A stretch of DNA of 64,000 nt, from positions 4,540 to 68,539 of the forward strand of contig JASHOU010000185.1 of the NCBI GenBank assembly GCA_030038475.1, read 5' to 3'. This document shows, in pieces, positions 2,781-21,646 of this stretch (positions within the stretch are counted from its first letter, which is position 1; every line of letters begins with the position of its first letter). The translations under genes and the position numbers were made by a program. This DNA is from Terriglobales bacterium. Lineage in GTDB: Bacteria; Acidobacteriota; Terriglobia; Terriglobales; Acidobacteriaceae. The notes under the pieces are model-generated. The model was given only the letters and a program-made list of their open reading frames with translations, was not told the origin of the DNA and did no database searches.

Positions 2781-5081
2781 ATGCGACCCTTCTCTGCGAT
2801 TGTGCTGATCTACACGCTGACGTTTTCCCTTGCCGTCCCACCTTTATCGTTCGGCGCTGACCCAGCCAGCTCAAGCCCGGCTGCTCTCGTCGGTTACTCG
2901 CCGCGCGCCAGCCAGAGCGAGCGCGAATGGGAGACGAAATTTCGCGCCAATCCTGACCCCACTAACCTACGGGAATACATGCAACGGTTGAGCGCGCGGC
3001 CGCACCACGTCGGCTCGCCCTACGATAAAGACAATGCCGAGTGGATCCTCGCCCACTTCAAGGAATGGGGACTGGACGCGCACATCGAACGGTTTGACGT
3101 TCTGTTCCCGACTCCGAAGATTCGCGTGCTGGGGATGGTTTCGCCAACCAAATTCACAGCCAAGCTGGAAGAACCGGCCCTGGCGATCGATCCAACCTCG
3201 AATCAGAAAGACGAGCAATTGCCCACCTACAACGCGTACTCGACTGACGGCGACGTTACCGCGCCGCTGGTGTTTGTGAACTACGGGTTGCCTGAAGACT
3301 ACGAAAAGCTCGACCGGCTTGGCATTTCGGTGAAAGGCGCAATTGTCATCGCGAAGTACTATCAGAGCTGGCGCGGCGTGAAACCCAAGGTCGCAGCCGA
3401 GCACGGAGCTATTGGCTGCCTAATTTACTCGGAACCGAAAGACGACGGTTACAGCGTCGACAATGTGTTTCCGCTGGGGCCGATGCGTCCGCCGGATGGA
3501 GTGCAACGTGGCAGCGTCATGGATTTTGCGTCCGCGAGTCCGGGCGATCCGCTGACTCCGGGGATTGGCGCGACGACCGATGCCAAGCGCTTGCAGCTGA
3601 GCGAGGCAAAAAGCATCACGAAAATTCCTGTGCTTCCGATTTCTTACGGCGATGCGCAGCCCTTGCTGGCCGCACTGGCGGGGCCAATGGCGCCGGAGGA
3701 ATGGCGCGGCACGCTGCCCATTCCTTATCACGTGGGACCAGGGCCGGCGCAGGTTCATCTGAAACTCGCCTTCAATTGGGACATCAAGCCGGTCTACGAT
3801 GTGATCGCGAAAATTCCCGGCAGCGTGGCTGCGGATGAGTGGATCATTCGCGGCAATCACCATGACGGATGGGTGAACGGAGCCGATGATCCCATCTCAG
3901 GGCAGGTTGCTCTGCTGGAGGAAGCACGATCGCTCAGTCTGTTGCTGAAACAAGGATGGAAGCCGCGGCGCACAATCATCTATTGCGCGTGGGACGGCGA
4001 GGAACCGATGTTGCTTGGCTCGACCGAATGGGTCGAGACTCATGCCGACGAATTGGCGGCACACGCAGCGGTTTATATCAACACAGACAGCAACGGTCGC
4101 GGCATTCTGGAGATGCAGGGCTCGCACAGCCTGGAGCAGTTCATCAATGGAGTGGCGCGCGACATTGAAGATCCGGAAACGAAGATGTCAGTGTGGCAGC
4201 GCGCTCAGCTGGTTAAGATTGCCGAGGCAAAATCCGCGGACGAAAAGAAGGAATTGCGGCAGCGAACCGATTTGCGCATCGACGCACTGGGCTCGGGAAC
4301 CGATTTCACAGGGTTTATCGATCACCTGGGCATCGCCTCGCTGAATCTGGGATTTGGCGGCGAGGACCCAGGAGGAATTTACCACTCCATTTACGATGAC
4401 TTCTACTGGTTCACGCATTTCTCCGACACGGATTTTGTCTATGGGCGAGCGATGGCGCAAACCATTGGCACTTCTGTGATGCGATTGGCAGATGCGGAAG
4501 TGTTGCCGTTCAACTTCGTCGATCAGGCCGACACCGTCGAGATGTACACGAAGAACCTGCAGAAATTGCTGGCCGACAAACAGAACGAGGCGCGCGAGCG
4601 CAATCAGGAGCTGGACGAAGGACTGTTTAAGGCGACGTTCGATCCTAGGCGTCCCACAGTCGCGCCGCCGCGGGAAGAAATTCCGCCACACCTGAATTTT
4701 GCGCAGCTGGAGAATGCTGTGGACTCGCTGACGCGCAGCGCGAAGCACTATCAGCAGGCGTTGACGCAGGCGCAGGCAAATCTTGATGACGAACCGGTTA
4801 CGGCAAAGCTGGGCGCGCTGAACAAAGAGTTGATCGAGAGCGAACGACGGTTAACCGATCCCGAGGGGTTGCCACGGCGTCCGTGGTACAAGCATCTGCT
4901 ATATGCGCCGGGCGTTTATTCGGGCTATGGAGTAAAGACGGTTCCCGGCGTCCGCGAAGGAATCGAACTGAAACGGTATGCGGAAGCGGATGAGGAGATC
5001 GTGCGCGTTTCGAAGGCGATCGAAAATGAGTCGGCGCTGATCGAATCGGCGGCGCAGCAGTTGGAACAAACAGGGCGATAG
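2781..5081 (+). CDS. M28-family metallopeptidase, glutamate carboxypeptidase II / transferrin-receptor-like (PA + M28 + dimerisation domains)
   Basis: Signal peptide, then RANPDPTNLREYMQRLSARPHHVGSPYDKDNAEWI, ...WIIRGNHHDGWVNGADDP..., ...CAWDGEEPMLLGSTEWVE..., and a C-terminal PRRPWYKHLLYAPG motif typical of PSMA/NAALADase-like enzymes. GGAG lies 6 nt before the ATG. Confidence 0.85.
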   Translation: MRPFSAIVLIYTLTFSLAVPPLSFGADPASSSPAALVGYSPRASQSEREWETKFRANPDPTNLREYMQRLSARPHHVGSPYDKDNAEWILAHFKEWGLDAHIERFDVLFPTPKIRVLGMVSPTKFTAKLEEPALAIDPTSNQKDEQLPTYNAYSTDGDVTAPLVFVNYGLPEDYEKLDRLGISVKGAIVIAKYYQSWRGVKPKVAAEHGAIGCLIYSEPKDDGYSVDNVFPLGPMRPPDGVQRGSVMDFASASPGDPLTPGIGATTDAKRLQLSEAKSITKIPVLPISYGDAQPLLAALAGPMAPEEWRGTLPIPYHVGPGPAQVHLKLAFNWDIKPVYDVIAKIPGSVAADEWIIRGNHHDGWVNGADDPISGQVALLEEARSLSLLLKQGWKPRRTIIYCAWDGEEPMLLGSTEWVETHADELAAHAAVYINTDSNGRGILEMQGSHSLEQFINGVARDIEDPETKMSVWQRAQLVKIAEAKSADEKKELRQRTDLRIDALGSGTDFTGFIDHLGIASLNLGFGGEDPGGIYHSIYDDFYWFTHFSDTDFVYGRAMAQTIGTSVMRLADAEVLPFNFVDQADTVEMYTKNLQKLLADKQNEARERNQELDEGLFKATFDPRRPTVAPPREEIPPHLNFAQLENAVDSLTRSAKHYQQALTQAQANLDDEPVTAKLGALNKELIESERRLTDPEGLPRRPWYKHLLYAPGVYSGYGVKTVPGVREGIELKRYAEADEEIVRVSKAIENESALIESAAQQLEQTGR

Positions 5082-6981: not shown

Positions 6982-7030
6982 GCGCAAGACGGCTGGCGGT
7001 TGCCGAGCGATTCATCGGCAAGTGACTACA

Positions 7031-7057
7031 GATCCTTCGCTTCGCTCAGGATGACAA
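7031..7057 (+). repeat. Short dispersed motif GATCCTTCGCTTCGCTCAGGATGACAA ('LRMT' element), copy 1
   Basis: It aligns with 19360-19389 (TCCTTCG-N-CT(C/T)AGGATGACA). It is intergenic, downstream of phoU. Confidence 0.6.
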
Positions 7058-11903: not shown

Positions 11904-12506
11904 TCATACGTCGGTCTCCTTGCGGGCCTGGGCTCGGAACTGATCCAGTTCGTGGCCGTGCGGGATAGCGATGCCGTCGGTCAGGGCCGGCGTAGGCCGG
12001 CTCTTCCACGAGCGCACGATATAAACCGCGAGGGCTATGCCCAGCGCGAGAACCAAGAAGGGCATGATCCAGGCGACGCGATTGAAGCCGGTGGCGGTTG
12101 GCGCAGCGATCACCGTCGGGCCGTACTCCTGCACGAAGCCTTGCAGGATGAGGTCGTCGTTGTTGCTGCCGCCCTTGTCGATCGCAGCCGAGAGTTCGCC
12201 GCGCATTTTGTCCGAGGCCTGGCAGCCAACGTGATTGCATTCGAGCAGGACCTGGCCGCATCCGCAAGTGCACATCATGCGGTGGCCGAGGTCTTTGAAG
12301 CGGGCGTCGGTATCTCCGGCGCCGAGGAATGCAAACACAGCGAACGCGAGAGCGGCGGCTTGTAGCCAACGGCGCGGAGAGGGGGCGACCTCAGCGGCTG
12401 AAGCCGCATTTGCGAGAGGGTTGTTATCGCAGCGCTGAAGCGCTGCGCCACCCAAAAACAGGCGCAAAACCGACTTCTTCCGCAACCTGCTCAAGATCGA
12501 TCCCAT
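11904..12506 (-). CDS. ccmH: Cytochrome c-type biogenesis protein CcmH/NrfF-like (N-terminal ~40 codons are encoded by a hairpin repeat element)
   Basis: Signal anchor AAALAFAVFAFLGAG, thiol motif MMCTCGCGQVLLECNHVGC, MRGEL...I..G.S...I...FV..YG..V...P, and a C-terminal TM WIMPFLVLALGIALAVYIV. The ATG lies 1 nt after the ccmF stop. Confidence 0.8.
   Translation of the reverse strand: MGSILSRLRKKSVLRLFLGGAALQRCDNNPLANAASAAEVAPSPRRWLQAAALAFAVFAFLGAGDTDARFKDLGHRMMCTCGCGQVLLECNHVGCQASDKMRGELSAAIDKGGSNNDDLILQGFVQEYGPTVIAAPTATGFNRVAWIMPFLVLALGIALAVYIVRSWKSRPTPALTDGIAIPHGHELDQFRAQARKETDV
12394..12446. repeat. Double perfect hairpin element (GCGGC-TGAA-GCCGC ... GCAGCGC-TGAA-GCGCTGC) inside the 5' end of the ccmH reading frame
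   Basis: Stems of 5 bp (12394-12407) and 7 bp (12429-12446), both with TGAA loops. The 18-nt core CAGCGGCTGAAGCCGCAT is 17/18 identical to 18258-18275. Confidence 0.75.
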
Positions 12507-17907: not shown

Positions 17908-18624
17908 CTAAAGAGGCTCGTAGTATTTTTCCCCGGCGCAGGAGCGGCAGAGGATTTTGCCGTCCCGCAGAACTTCGCGGTGGAAGTTGATGCCTTCTCC
18001 GCAGCGGGAGCAGACGATGCGGTTGGACTTATAGCCTGGGAACTCTTCGGGAAGTAACTCGACTTTGACCCATTGGGTGGTGAATAAGTCGTCGTCGGAA
18101 AGTTCGCGGTAGGCGAGCATCTGCTGCTGGTTCTTGTTTTCGATTTCGGGATGGAGTTCGCGGGCGAGCGTTTTCGACGATTCTTTGGCGGCGACACGGA
18201 TGGCTTTATAGCGATGGTCCGAGGTCGCGACCTTCAGAGATGGGGACGATTGTCCCCCAGCGGCTAAAGCCGCATCCCTTCCGGTCGCTGACGGCACGAC
18301 TAAAGTCGTGCCCTTCCCGTTTTCGTCGATCTGCGAAGAAACGTGGGTGGCGAGGTCGACGAAGGTGGCGGCCATCTTTCCCCAGTCGCGGAATTTGAGA
18401 GCGCGCTTGCCGAGGCGGCATCCGGTGACGACGGCGATGGCATCGGTGGCGCAGCGGTCGATTTCGACGAAGGTGACAAGACGCTTGCGGTCTTTACCGC
18501 GCGGGTCGTCGATGCCGAGTTTGGCGAGGCCAAGCATAGCGAGGCGCACACCGAGAATTTGCCCGGCGCAGAGATGGCCGTGGGCCAACTCTGCTTGCCG
18601 AATAAGATCATCAATGGAAACCAT
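17908..18624 (-). CDS. FmdE-family protein with C-terminal zinc ribbon
   Basis: AELAHGHLCAGQILGVRLAMLG...VEIDRCATDAIAVVTGCRLGKR (FmdE/FwdE domain) and C-terminal CSRCGEGI...ILCRSC. The linker contains an in-frame triple-hairpin repeat. Confidence 0.8.
   Translation of the reverse strand: MVSIDDLIRQAELAHGHLCAGQILGVRLAMLGLAKLGIDDPRGKDRKRLVTFVEIDRCATDAIAVVTGCRLGKRALKFRDWGKMAATFVDLATHVSSQIDENGKGTTLVVPSATGRDAALAAGGQSSPSLKVATSDHRYKAIRVAAKESSKTLARELHPEIENKNQQQMLAYRELSDDDLFTTQWVKVELLPEEFPGYKSNRIVCSRCGEGINFHREVLRDGKILCRSCAGEKYYEPL
18242..18312. repeat. Triple perfect hairpin element inside the fmdE-like reading frame
   Basis: GGGGAC-GATT-GTCCCC (18242-18257), GCGGC-TAAA-GCCGC (18260-18273), GGCACGAC-TAAA-GTCGTGCC (18293-18312). 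Confidence 0.75.
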
Positions 18625-18628
18625 GATT

Positions 18629-18661
18629 GAGTAATTTTGTAATCGGGTAATTGTGTAATCT
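18629..18661. repeat. Octamer array (GTAATTTT GTAATCGG GTAATTGT GTAATC); contains the left copy of a 19-bp perfect inverted repeat
   Basis: 18634-18652 ATTTTGTAATCGGGTAATT is the exact reverse complement of 19411-19429. Confidence 0.8.
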
Positions 18662-18720
18662 AAGGAACGCTCGTGTTTCGCCAGTCGTTGGGCCGAAGGG
18701 AGAGCAGATCCTTCCGAATA

Positions 18721-19260
18721 CTATTCCGAACCGTTTTCCCACCAGCGATACTTCCTAACAAAGATTACCACCTCCCTCGGAGTCCTCTTGAACTTCGTAA
18801 GATCGAACTTTCTATTGCAGTGGTTATCACCCACCACTCCCGACGTACGAATCTCGTCCAGAGAAAACAAACCGGTGGAACATTGAATGCCACCTCCGGC
18901 ATAGGTGATTTGCAGGTCTAACAACTTGGACAGCCTTTGCCGAGAAACTGCTTCACGTTTGTCGCCGCTGTTACTGCTCTGATTCTCCGAAGGCGTGGAA
19001 CGAAGCTTTTCGTCGGGGAACAGCACCCTCCCATCATCGTCTGCGGTTCCTTGAAGAGGCATACCCTGTTCCACGATCGGCCTATGGGTATCAGGATTGA
19101 TTCGATACACTAAAACCCCGCGGCGTGGCACCGGCTTGCCATCTGTAGCGTTGATGAGTTGCACGGTAATGATAGGACTTCCTTGCTGCGCATGAGATGC
19201 TACAGCCACCAAACAGCAGAGTGCCGAAACTATCCAGTAAGACCTCATTGTGCGGCACAA
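18721..19260 (-). CDS. Hypothetical secreted protein, AT-richer than its surroundings
   Basis: Signal peptide MRSYWIVSALCCLVAVASHAQQ. I recognise no domain. Two hand-counted 100-nt samples give ~46% and ~51% GC, versus ~66% in a neighbouring fmdE sample. Confidence 0.55.
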   Translation of the reverse strand: MCRTMRSYWIVSALCCLVAVASHAQQGSPIITVQLINATDGKPVPRRGVLVYRINPDTHRPIVEQGMPLQGTADDDGRVLFPDEKLRSTPSENQSSNSGDKREAVSRQRLSKLLDLQITYAGGGIQCSTGLFSLDEIRTSGVVGDNHCNRKFDLTKFKRTPREVVIFVRKYRWWENGSE

Positions 19261-19359
19261 CTTCCGCTAAGGAAGCGAGTATACGGCTGTGCGATTGCGG
19301 AATTCCGAGTATTAATTACAAGCGATACGCTGCTTCGACCCGGGTGCAACGGATTCAAT

Positions 19360-19389
19360 GGTCCTTCGACTCCGCTTAGGATGACACGG
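19360..19389 (+). repeat. 'LRMT' element, copy 2 (GGTCCTTCGACTCCGCTTAGGATGACACGG)
   Basis: Same orientation and same core as 7031-7057. It is intergenic. Confidence 0.6.
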
Positions 19390-19397
19390 GTTGGGCA

Positions 19398-19446
19398 GTT
19401 TCAAATTGCAAATTACCCGATTACAAAATACTTAATTTCACAATCC
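19398..19446. repeat. AT-rich array containing the right copy of the 19-bp inverted repeat
   Basis: 19411-19429 AATTACCCGATTACAAAAT, starting 4 nt after the cysS stop region. Confidence 0.8.
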
Positions 19447-19449
19447 TCT

Positions 19450-20940
19450 CTACTTTCTACGCCATCTTACTCCGTCCTTCGTATTTTCCACGATGATACC
19501 CGCGTCGGTCAGCTCTTTGCGGAGTGCGTCGCTCGCCTTGAAGTTGCGCGATTTTCTGGCCGCTTCCATTTCGGAGAGCTTTTGGTTGATTTGCTCGTCG
19601 CTGAGCTGCGTGGAACCGGCGATCTCCAGTAACTCGGGGCTGATTTCCTTGGCTTTCTCCGTGCCTTCGGCTCGGGCCCAGTCGAGAATGGATTTCATCT
19701 TCGGCTGATCGTCGTCTTTCAGCACGCTGAAGATCTCGTCGAATTTCTCGAGCGTGGCGAGCAGCGCTTTGGCATCATCGTTGTGAACCTCGTCGGCATC
19801 GAGCGCGGTGTTGGCTTTGCGCAGCATGTCGAAGATCGCGCCCTGAGCTTCGGCGGTGTTGAGGTCGTCGTTCAGCGCGCTGGTGATTCGGGCGGCGGTT
19901 TCGCCGGCGAGCTGGGTGATGGCTGGGTTCGATCCCGCAGCAAATTGAGTGCTCGTCAGGCGAAAACGGAAGTTGCGCAGCTTTTCTACCGAGCTGGCGG
20001 CCGACTTCAATCCGTCGAAGGTGAAGTTCAGTTGATTGCGATACGGAACCTGCGTGAGCAGCCAGCGAATCGACGATGGCTTGTGGCCGCGCAGCACGAG
20101 GTCGCGGAGGGTGAAAAAATTGCCGAAGCTCTTCGACATCTTCTGGCCTTCGACGAGCAGAAAACGCACATGAAACCAGTCGTGCGCAAGCTGCTGCCCG
20201 CTGAGCGACTCCGACTGCGCGATTTCGTTTTCATGATGCGGAAAAATCAAATCTTCGCCGCCGGCGTGCAGGTCGAAGCTGGGGCCGAGCTCCTCCATTG
20301 ACATTACTGAGCACTCGATGTGCCAGCCGGGACGGCCGGGCCCGATCGCCGTCTCCCAGAAAGCCTCGCCGGGTTTCGGAGCTTTCCATAGCGCGAAATC
20401 GCGGGCGCTGTCTTTTTCGTATTCGTCGACGTCGACGCGCGCACCGTCGGTCATGCCGGCGAAATCTTTTTTTGAGAGCTTGCCGTAGGCGGGAAATTTC
20501 GCGATGCGGAAATAATAAGAGCCGTCGTCGGTGCGATACGCGAAACCTTTCTTTTCGAGTTGGGCAATGAAATCGGCCATCTCGTCGATGTGCTCGGTGG
20601 CGCGGACGAGGAGTGGCTTTTCGATGTTCAGAATCGCGGAATCTTCGAGAAACGCCTGGGTGAATTTGGCGGTATATTGCTGCACGGTGACGCCGTCGCG
20701 TGCGGCGTTGCGGATAATCTTGTCGTCGACGTCGGTGATGTTCATGACGTAGCGGACATCGTATCCGCTCTGGCGCAGAAAACGGTAAAGAAGATCGACG
20801 GCGATGAAGGTGCGGAAATTGCCGATGTGGCCGTAGTCGTAGACGGTGGGTCCGCAGGCGTACATGCGAACGCGGTTGGCGTCGATGGGATGGAAGTCTT
20901 CTACTTTTCCAGAGAGCGTGTTATAGAGGCGGAGGGGCAT
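19450..20940 (-). CDS. cysS: Cysteine--tRNA ligase
   Basis: MPLRLYNTLSGKVEDFHP...MYACGPTVYDYGHIGN (HIGH), ...KMSKS. The start is taken at the internal ATG (20938-20940) that gives the canonical N-terminus. The 71-codon upstream extension in the track looks spurious. Confidence 0.95.
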   Translation of the reverse strand: MPLRLYNTLSGKVEDFHPIDANRVRMYACGPTVYDYGHIGNFRTFIAVDLLYRFLRQSGYDVRYVMNITDVDDKIIRNAARDGVTVQQYTAKFTQAFLEDSAILNIEKPLLVRATEHIDEMADFIAQLEKKGFAYRTDDGSYYFRIAKFPAYGKLSKKDFAGMTDGARVDVDEYEKDSARDFALWKAPKPGEAFWETAIGPGRPGWHIECSVMSMEELGPSFDLHAGGEDLIFPHHENEIAQSESLSGQQLAHDWFHVRFLLVEGQKMSKSFGNFFTLRDLVLRGHKPSSIRWLLTQVPYRNQLNFTFDGLKSAASSVEKLRNFRFRLTSTQFAAGSNPAITQLAGETAARITSALNDDLNTAEAQGAIFDMLRKANTALDADEVHNDDAKALLATLEKFDEIFSVLKDDDQPKMKSILDWARAEGTEKAKEISPELLEIAGSTQLSDEQINQKLSEMEAARKSRNFKASDALRKELTDAGIIVENTKDGVRWRRK

Positions 20941-21019
20941 GCGCGTTGGACGAAGGGATATTCTATCGCGGGAGAGCCGCCAGCTTCGAGCCGCGAGCTT
21001 CGAGCCACGAGTTGAGACG

Positions 21020-21646
21020 ATGAACGAAAAAAACAGCACTCTGCTGTTGACAGTAGATTTGACGGGCACGTTTGTGTTTGCGCTGGAGGGCGCAATGACC
21101 GCCATCCAGTTTGAACTCGATTTTTTCGGCGTGATGGTGCTGTCGTTTGCCACGGCGCTGGCGGGCGGAGTGATCCGCGATCTGCTGATTGGCGCGGCCC
21201 CGCCGGCGTCTCTGCGCGACTGGCGTTATGCGGCCACGGCGTTCAGCGCCGGAGCGGGCGTGTTTTTTTTTCATCATTATTTGTTGCAGATTCCGAATGC
21301 GGCGATTATCGGGCTGGATGCGGCCGGGCTGGCGCTGTTTGCCATGGCGGGAACGGAAAAGGCGCTGGCTTACAAGATGCATCCGTTTATTGCCGTGTTG
21401 TTGGGCACGATCACGGGCGTGGGCGGGGGCACGGTGCGCGATATTTTTCTGGCGCGCGTCCCTAGTGTTCTGCAGAGCGACGTTTATGCGACGGCGGCGA
21501 TGGCGGGAGCGTTGGTGATGGTGGTGGGGCGAAAAGCGGGATTGTCTCCGGCAGCGGCCGCGGGAGTGGGTGGAACAGTATGTTTTCTGCTGCGCGTGAT
21601 TGCGGTGTGGCAGCACTGGAACCTGCCGCGTGTGACCGCGCCGTAG
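21020..21646 (+). CDS. TRIC-family cation channel (UPF0126/YadS-like)
   Basis: Two UPF0126 repeats: DLTGTFVFALEGAMTA...GGVIRDLLIG and GLDAAGLALFAMAGTEKA...GVGGGTVRDIFL. The start is taken at MNEKNS. Confidence 0.85.
   Translation: MNEKNSTLLLTVDLTGTFVFALEGAMTAIQFELDFFGVMVLSFATALAGGVIRDLLIGAAPPASLRDWRYAATAFSAGAGVFFFHHYLLQIPNAAIIGLDAAGLALFAMAGTEKALAYKMHPFIAVLLGTITGVGGGTVRDIFLARVPSVLQSDVYATAAMAGALVMVVGRKAGLSPAAAAGVGGTVCFLLRVIAVWQHWNLPRVTAP

Follow-up and report, generated by a model that had tools for sequence, protein, structure and literature searches.

How does a single short gene come to lie between the two arms of an intergenic hairpin, and what might its product do? The question is raised by the spacer between cysS and an fmdE-like gene in a Terriglobales bacterium (assembly GCA_030038475.1), where the 19 nucleotide (nt) sequence ATTTTGTAATCGGGTAATT at positions 18634-18652 recurs, exactly reverse-complemented, at 19411-19429 and the two arms enclose 758 nt. 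The stretch that we analysed, called the window hereafter, comprises 64 000 nt of contig JASHOU010000185.1 (C58:4540-68539). The genome is a draft assembly that resembles a metagenome-assembled genome (MAG), with 4.46 Mb in 216 contigs, 57.2% guanine plus cytosine (GC) and an estimated contamination of 3.5%, and the contig carrying the locus is 68.9 kb long. From the comparisons described below we conclude, with high confidence, that foreign DNA was inserted into the loop of a hairpin that already stood between cysS and the fmdE-like gene. The explanation that we favour overall, and consider probable, is that the insert is a 644 bp orphan Rhs module residing in the loop of this pre-existing hairpin.

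The inverted repeat belongs to a family of array hairpins

The perfect inverted repeat reported in a first-pass annotation of the window is real. The two 19-nt arms are the sole matches to this sequence in the window, even when three mismatches are allowed, and no match to the repeat was found in any of 100 shuffled sequences. The arms flank both neighbouring genes, as the annotation had stated, but the distance of 4 nt that it gave for each side was inexact: 9 nt separate the arm at 18634 from the downstream ATG of the fmdE-like gene (18622-18624), and the arm ending at 19429 lies 20 nt past the stop codon of cysS (19450-19452). Each arm belongs to a short tandem array of GTAATNN(N) units, with four units per side at this locus. 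The array on the fmdE side ends 6-9 nt ahead of the fmdE-like ATG, and both this array and its counterpart on the cysS side have orthologous arms in related genomes.

Arrays of this kind recur throughout the genome. The 19-mer has four exact copies and 38 within three mismatches (none in a reversed control), and a census counted 86-112 GTAATNN(N) arms, depending on the rule applied. There are 34 pairs in which a plus-strand arm is followed by a minus-strand arm. The loop measures 11-60 nt in 31 of these pairs; the other three loops are of 150, 745 (this site) and 793 nt. The family is defined by two inverted arms with at least three phased GTAATNN(N) units each, at many intergenic sites, and the locus studied here has this structure, so the assignment made in the first-pass annotation holds. 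The 150-nt loop, in the array hairpin at C10:10188-10398, contains short tandem repeats (GGGTCATC... and GATTTGTAAATCC..., two copies of each).

In a computed fold of an 861 nt stretch, the minimum-energy and centroid structures both pair the two arms around the entire insert, with an overall energy no better than that of shuffled sequences. An Rfam search of the whole window at the gathering threshold returned nothing, and a search of the region at E values up to 5 gave only two snoRNA matches at chance level. A full-text literature search for heptanucleotide arrays in Acidobacteria found no paper.

The hairpin pre-dates the gene

The first-pass annotation had proposed that the cysS-fmdE interval be compared in relatives. 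Relatives were sampled at one genome per species; 24 other species of the same genus yielded the fmdE-like gene, and at 23 of these loci cysS was present as well. At all 23, cysS is directly upstream of the fmdE-like gene, and the spacer measures 60-205 nt, compared with 825 nt here. The gene found between the arms, which encodes a protein of 175 amino acids (aa), is missing from all 24 congeners and has only marginal matches in two genomes of the same order; a search of its own genome for further copies, likewise proposed, showed it to be single-copy. A hairpin occupies the spacer in 11 of the 23 relatives by a strict count (at least three phased units on each side) and in about 17 of the 23 by eye. 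The remaining spacers carry other repeats, which are either GC-rich palindromes or a GTCATCC...GAAGGATC motif.

Two relatives, G010 and G002, have uninterrupted spacers of 201-205 nt with loops of 121-125 nt that start with ACCC(G/T)TGTC(A/G)T(T/C)CC and contain GGAGGAATCTGCA. The arms of G002 carry a compensating change, in which GTGATC pairs with GATCAC. When the flanks of the insert are joined by removal of 18721-19359, the resulting 186 nt align end to end with these two spacers; the alignment runs from one arm to the other and takes in the loop motifs as well as CCTTAGATTAC, which leads into the right arm. The repeat-bearing hairpin therefore pre-dates the gene, and the two 19-nt arms together make up a single intergenic GTAATNN(N) hairpin, conserved in the genus, between cysS and the fmdE-like gene. 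We also considered whether the arms might be remnants of two separate, decayed hairpins, and dismissed this because the alignment of the joined flanks with both G010 and G002 is that of a single hairpin.

The 'LRMT' motif that had been noted between the arms is present, on the minus strand, and belongs to the loop (Table 1). The local copy has diverged and is the sole match within three mismatches in the genome. Some 45-70 further copies of this dispersed repeat occur in the genome, for example at 7030-7054 of the window (C58:11569), at C54:12672/12726 and at C182:7398/7450. The form TTGTCATCCTGAGCGAAGCGAAGGA(T/C)CTGC has 78 genome matches within seven mismatches, compared with six in a reversed control. 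In some copies GAGCG and AGTCGAAGGA are separated by an additional hairpin, and in five relatives copies lie inside the array hairpin of the cysS-fmdE spacer or replace it. The repeat matched no Rfam family in the window.

The same distribution could in principle arise if the gene were ancestral at this site and had been lost in every sampled relative, with the arms rejoined each time. One genome per species was sampled, and the cargo of a second split hairpin (described below) persists across several species, which gives this idea some footing. It would nevertheless call for many independent and precise deletions to leave 23 of 23 relatives without the gene, and inverted repeats do not promote deletion of the DNA that they enclose. 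The segment also has an atypical composition, and the toxin remnant that it carries derives it from an Rhs locus, not from the spacer. We therefore judge ancestral presence to be very unlikely, and current data suggest that the insertion is confined to this one tip.

Limits and composition of the insert

Homology to metagenomic Rhs loci at the nucleotide level covers exactly 18721-19364, extending from 116 nt upstream of the ATG to the stop codon of the 175-aa gene, and the same segment is missing from the alignment of the joined flanks with relatives. The true ends of the insert are thus within the loop, at distances of 46 and 68 nt from the arms. At the left junction, the loop repeat GTCATCCTAAGCGGAGTCGAAGGACC ends in GGACC, which also forms the first 5 nt of the toxin remnant (a 5-nt overlap). 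The right junction directly follows the TAG stop codon and sits in unique sequence; the next bases, TATTCGGAAGGATCTGC, align with the loop motif of relatives and imperfectly repeat TCGAAGGAC of the left junction, giving a direct repeat of 9-11 nt. Over the loop DNA at 18698-18720, the imperfect direct repeat can be read as TCGGAAGGATC with the same TCGAAGGAC. The insert contains no recombinase, transposase, terminal repeats or clean target duplication. As the junctions show only the 5-nt overlap and the imperfect direct repeat, we infer that joining was illegitimate or relied on micro-homology; the genome encodes Ku. The event would have occurred next to or inside the resident GTCATCC...GAAGGATC repeat of the hairpin loop.

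The low GC content proposed for the gene between the arms is borne out, although the deviation is smaller than hand counts had indicated. The insert has 51.6% GC, compared with 57.3 ± 2.8% in genome windows of equal size, which places it at the 3rd percentile. The open reading frame (ORF) has 51.3% GC overall and 55.7% at third codon positions (GC3), whereas its neighbours have 57-59% GC and a GC3 of 63-73%; among ORFs of at least 300 aa, GC3 averages 67.5 ± 5.1%, so that this ORF falls at the 2nd percentile. Six of seven family members examined elsewhere have GC contents 7-13 points under those of their host loci.

A similar module is present in a Terracidiphilus MAG, between rsmB and a gene for an MFS transporter, where no arrays are found. 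The left ends of the two modules differ by no more than about 5 nt, and as this limit is shared, the unit of remnant plus gene seems to be passed around as such. The remnant may hold signals for expressing the gene, which is one possible reason for the unit to travel whole. A scan of 18550-19500 detected no sigma-70-type promoter and no intrinsic terminator. cysS, the 175-aa ORF and the fmdE-like gene are all encoded on the minus strand. The 175-aa gene is probably transcribed together with both neighbours, which is the simplest assumption. In the Terracidiphilus MAG (L051, 5523-5560), the last ~35 nt of the gene are repeated in tandem just past the stop codon, with a few changes.

These limits also bear on a second idea in the first-pass annotation, that the arms are the terminal inverted repeats of a small non-autonomous mobile cassette. 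In favour of this idea, the 19 bp inverted repeat around the single gene is perfect, and the 19-mer is multi-copy in the genome. That the 19-mer is a common array word, a finding which the annotation had named as evidence against its own reading, speaks against a cassette and not against a split hairpin. In relatives the arms occupy the same site without the gene, elsewhere family members occur without arms, and homology to the donor stops well inside the arms. The search for a target-site duplication outside the arms found none; the outer flanks, ...AAGT before one arm and TACTC... after the other, form no direct repeat. A cassette bounded by the arms is accordingly rejected as extremely improbable. 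In contrast, the annotation's simpler reading, a foreign gene in the loop of a pre-existing hairpin, fits the uninterrupted order of cysS and the fmdE-like gene in all 23 relatives, the lack of the gene in 24 congeners, the alignment of the joined flanks and the toxin remnant.

It is also conceivable that the 644 bp segment was misjoined during assembly from a co-occurring relative in the metagenome. The assembly is MAG-like, with 216 contigs and 3.5% contamination, and the left junction abuts a dispersed repeat. In an exact-sequence look-up, the 175-aa protein and the fmdE-like protein were found solely on this contig. An artefact would, however, require two independent mis-joins within a 68.9 kb contig, one of them in the unique sequence of the right junction, and the local repeat copy is diverged, with no other match within three mismatches in the genome. 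The comparable orphan module in another genome likewise argues for a true insertion, and we regard an artefact as highly improbable.

The insert carries the end of an Rhs toxin gene

The origin of the insert is revealed by the 117 nt upstream of the 175-aa gene, which translate to GPLNPLHPGRSSVSLVINTRNSAIAQPYTRFLSGSCAAQ followed by a stop codon. These 39 codons are the 3′ end of an Rhs C-terminal toxin gene. They are 72% identical to the last 39 residues of a 274-aa Rhs protein, termed X, of the metagenomic locus L048 (tblastn, E = 1e-14), in which X is encoded just upstream of a homologue of the 175-aa protein. The TGA stop codon of the remnant overlaps the ATG of the next gene (ATGA), as it does in intact loci. 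Given this remnant, the insert came from a toxin-immunity locus.

X starts with the end of an RHS core (...ARYY..GRF.SPD...NLY.Y..NNP....D.DGH; ...GKERDTESGNDYFDARYYASSMGRFMSPD...NLYSYMRNNPLGGIDADGH). The source records call it an RHS repeat-associated protein, and longer versions carry the Pfam domains RHS_repeat and TEN_YD-shell. Its N-terminus is shared by 3882 database proteins, and among the 120 listed the C-terminal domains vary and include lysozyme, peptidase M23 and DPBB. Variable C-termini following a shared RHS core identify the architecture of X as that of a polymorphic Rhs toxin. A faint likeness of the X motifs SFHSGAD/LEAHYD to LAS-type zinc peptidases was unsupported and is not claimed.

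Directly behind intact X-type toxin genes comes a member of the 175-aa family at six metagenomic loci, which represent four distinct toxin-gene pairs (L046/L047, inside a multi-copy RHS locus; L048/L049; L084; and L085), with a 4-nt overlap between the two genes. Toxin and partner diverge together: where toxin identity is 61%, partner identity is 56%, and where toxin identity is 43%, partner identity is 30% (E = 4e-6). When the genome that carries the insert was searched by tblastn with four X proteins, only the 39-codon remnant and no intact X was found, and a PF05593 search of the same genome found no RHS repeats. The segment is thus an orphan, consisting of a toxin remnant and an immunity-like gene. 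A deletion derivative is seen at L050 (2830-2870), where the middle of an X gene (...NAIYKAFALGAQYGEESIG) is fused out of frame to an immunity-like signal-peptide region; the deletion removes the C-terminal half of the toxin.

A putative immunity protein

The first-pass annotation had described a 179-aa signal-peptide ORF at 18721-19260. The ORF exists, on the minus strand, but alignment with 18 homologues places the true start at the ATG at 19248, which yields a protein of 175 aa whose N-terminus, MRSYWIVSALCCLVAVASHA/QQ, is a Sec-type signal peptide. The gene is real and conserved: the homologues are 51-79% identical and were drawn from metagenomes and from assemblies of Terracidiphilus, Acidobacteriaceae, Terriglobia and Granulicella. 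They share 22 invariant positions, two cysteines among them, and the full-length homologues have a comparable hydrophobic, signal-peptide-like N-terminus. Members of the family were found at five other kinds of site, none with array arms. Pfam assigned the 175-aa protein to no family and to no known immunity family, and Foldseek searches with an AlphaFold2 model returned only generic transthyretin-like or pilin-like beta-sandwiches, none with E below 1e-3.

As a rule, a polymorphic Rhs toxin domain is followed by the gene for its immunity protein (PMC3150448, PMC3482391). Judging from its sequence and its place behind the toxin gene, the 175-aa protein is probably an orphan Rhs immunity protein. 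The donor would be another member of the Acidobacteriaceae, and the module from its Rhs polymorphic-toxin locus would consist of the last 39 codons of the toxin and the complete downstream gene, with their ATGA overlap. After export by its Sec signal peptide, the protein would likely neutralise the toxin in the periplasm; a signal peptide on an immunity protein fits a periplasm-acting toxin, and the cell-wall-degrading domains of sibling Rhs proteins make such a toxin plausible. In a genome with no copy of the toxin, the gene would protect against toxin delivered by competitors.

The insertion could be as described and the protein still be some other secreted accessory that accompanies Rhs toxin genes; it might serve as a chaperone or periplasmic adaptor, or be unrelated cargo. 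The signal peptide together with a generic transthyretin-like or carboxypeptidase-regulatory-like fold would suit such a role, no known immunity family matches the protein, and the homologue at L043/L052 adjoins a gene for tRNA-Arg and has no toxin in its vicinity. The genes of known Rhs chaperones and adaptors lie upstream of rhs and are not known to follow the toxin domain. In the family described here, four distinct toxin-gene pairs have the gene directly behind the toxin C-terminal domain, which it overlaps by 4 nt, and co-divergence with the toxin, together with an orphan that keeps a toxin remnant, are classic marks of cognate immunity. An accessory role is for these reasons unlikely, and we favour immunity. 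The homologue at L043/L052 lies 240 nt downstream of the tRNA-Arg(CCT) gene and is bracketed by a 35-nt direct repeat (3949-3983 and 4624-4658), CAACAGGAA(C/A)ATG(C/G)GCTAAAGGGTGCGCCACCCGCC; repeats of the GGGTGGCCC/GGGCCACCC type flank family members in L048 and L053.

Several points weigh against the explanation that we favour. The structural matches of the 175-aa protein are generic beta-sandwiches only. X is without a Pfam match, its AlphaFold model is poor (predicted local distance difference test score of 50), and Foldseek gave no meaningful fold matches. Continuity across both junctions of the insert rests on the contig alone, and absence of the toxin from the genome is uncertain given the number of contigs, the contamination and the fact that Rhs loci assemble badly. 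For dating the insertion there is one genome per species, and close strains are absent from the look-up. Finally, since the spacer between the two genes is mostly loop, landing in the loop needs no special mechanism.

If the explanation holds, an uncharacterised secreted family and an uncharacterised Rhs C-terminal domain can be tested as a cognate pair of immunity protein and toxin in soil Acidobacteriota, a phylum in which, to our knowledge, interbacterial antagonism is little studied. The locus also offers an unusually clear record of acquisition, with an empty site in relatives, limits placed nearly to the base, an identifiable type of donor and no mobility gene.

A second split hairpin

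The array hairpin with the 793-nt loop (C175:11532-12376, outside the window) is split in a similar manner, between a HIT-family gene and a peptidase gene, so that two of the 34 paired hairpins of this genome are interrupted by gene-sized inserts. We compared the HIT/peptidase spacer across the genus through loci L055-L083. The relatives G021, G017 and G041 have a compact hairpin, and their HIT-family and peptidase genes are 92-119 nt apart. G018 carries a membrane plus VOC-domain gene, which in the genome studied here is frameshifted by a 44-nt tandem duplication (~12178-12265) and in G011 is accompanied by higA and a small membrane ORF. In G015 the same small ORF stands with higB-higA, G006 has an unrelated segment of 523 nt, and G012 has mtgA and no arms. 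Cargo between the arms is thus recurrent and varied: three species have the compact hairpin, and across five others no fewer than three unrelated cargoes occur, either between the arms or next to them.

These observations raise the possibility that array-hairpin loops are preferred, break-prone entry points for foreign DNA and serve as recombinase-free landing pads in these Terriglobales. The AT-rich arms would form a hairpin or cruciform that is cut in the loop, and end joining by a system such as the Ku encoded here, or micro-homology repair, would capture stray toxin-immunity or toxin-antitoxin modules. We consider this proposal rather doubtful. The arms abut the flanking genes, which makes the loop almost the only neutral place in the spacer, and geometry alone could explain the recurrent loop insertions. 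Were the proposal true, abundant array hairpins would mark, or create, places where accessory genes accumulate.

Features of the locus

The coordinates of the elements discussed above are collected in Table 1. The longest ORF of cysS has a GTG start 86 codons ahead of the catalytic domain, and the true start is probably near MPLRLYNTLSG. The FmdE-like protein matches those of most congeners in two pieces that skip residues ~95-135, and only G011, G003 and G010 give a full-length match; a linker missing from most congeners in this way points to a lineage-specific insertion.

Table 1. Elements of the cysS-fmdE interval, with positions in the window.
Feature	Positions	Strand	Remarks
fmdE-like gene	17908-18624	minus	FmdE domain match; C-terminal zinc ribbon; conserved downstream neighbour
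fmdE-proximal hairpin arm	18631-18659	read on plus	GTAATTTT GTAATCGG GTAATTGT GTAAT; holds 19-nt core 18634-18652
Loop DNA just past the insert	18698-18720	minus	TATTCGGAAGGATCTGCTCTCCC; aligns with 3′ half of the GTCAT...GGAATCTGCA motif of relatives
Inserted segment, 644 nt	18721-19364	minus	51.6% GC; toxin remnant and immunity-like gene; homologous to Rhs loci from metagenomes
Putative orphan Rhs immunity protein, 175 aa, secreted	18721-19248	minus	Signal peptide; transthyretin-like beta-sandwich N-domain; C123 and C144
39-codon remnant, 3′ end of Rhs C-terminal toxin gene	19245-19364	minus	GPLNPLH...SGSCAAQ and stop; tblastn and nucleotide alignment
Dispersed GTCATCC...GAAGGAYC repeat ('LRMT' motif), loop resident	19360-19385	minus	GTCATCCTAAGCGGAGTCGAAGGACC; same place in loops of G010 and G002
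cysS-proximal hairpin arm	19403-19437	read on plus	ATTGCAA ATTACCCG ATTACAAA ATACTTA ATTTC; holds 19-nt core 19411-19429
cysS (cysteinyl-tRNA synthetase)	19450-21153	minus	Conserved upstream neighbour

Comparison with known systems

The closest parallels are the orphan toxin-immunity modules of Rhs and contact-dependent growth inhibition (CDI) systems and the orphan immunity genes against effectors of type VI secretion systems (PMC3150448, PMC3967940, PMC3482391, PMC10539506). In these systems, as here, the gene comes right after a variable C-terminal domain that follows the end of an RHS core, toxin and partner diverge together, and a stand-alone copy with a GC content below that of the host keeps a piece of the toxin in a toxin-free genome. 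The locus differs in that its toxin domain and partner protein, as far as sequence comparison can tell, fit no described family, and in that the remnant is only the 3′ end of the toxin domain. Classic orphan Rhs/CDI modules typically keep a piece of the rhs core that enables recombination. The module described here stands away from any rhs locus or immunity array, alone between housekeeping genes in the loop of a hairpin, and its host belongs to the Terriglobales (Acidobacteriota).

Other systems resemble the hairpin rather than its contents. IS1397 and ISKpn1 are examples of insertion sequence (IS) elements that insert into palindromes. The palindromes of repetitive extragenic palindromic (REP) sequences and bacterial interspersed mosaic elements (BIMEs) serve as targets for IS elements (PMC1525189). 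Here too, foreign DNA lies inside a multi-copy intergenic palindrome whose halves stand on either side. The REP/BIME inserts are IS elements with a transposase that recognises the palindrome, whereas the present insert has neither transposase nor terminal repeats, and its arms are AT-rich arrays of 7-8-nt units rather than GC-rich REP stems. Integron cassettes likewise comprise a single promoter-less gene bracketed by sequence able to fold as an imperfect hairpin. The attC site, however, travels with its cassette, whereas this hairpin belongs to the site and pre-dates the gene, and the insert ends inside the loop; IntI and attI are not in evidence, although no search for an integrase was made. 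The arrays themselves recall the short tandemly repeated repetitive (STRR) sequences of cyanobacteria, which are intergenic tandem arrays of 7-nt units at many genome sites. They differ in forming hairpins from inverted pairs, in their GTAATNN(N) units and in their occurrence in Acidobacteriota.

Finally, at hotspots of horizontal gene transfer, the same spacer between conserved core genes holds different accessory genes in different species. The HIT/peptidase site, with its VOC-domain gene, higBA, an unknown segment or nothing, conforms to this description. What sets the present loci apart from such hotspots is that a single hairpin frames them, with one arm at either end, which provides a precise picture of the site before and after the insertion.

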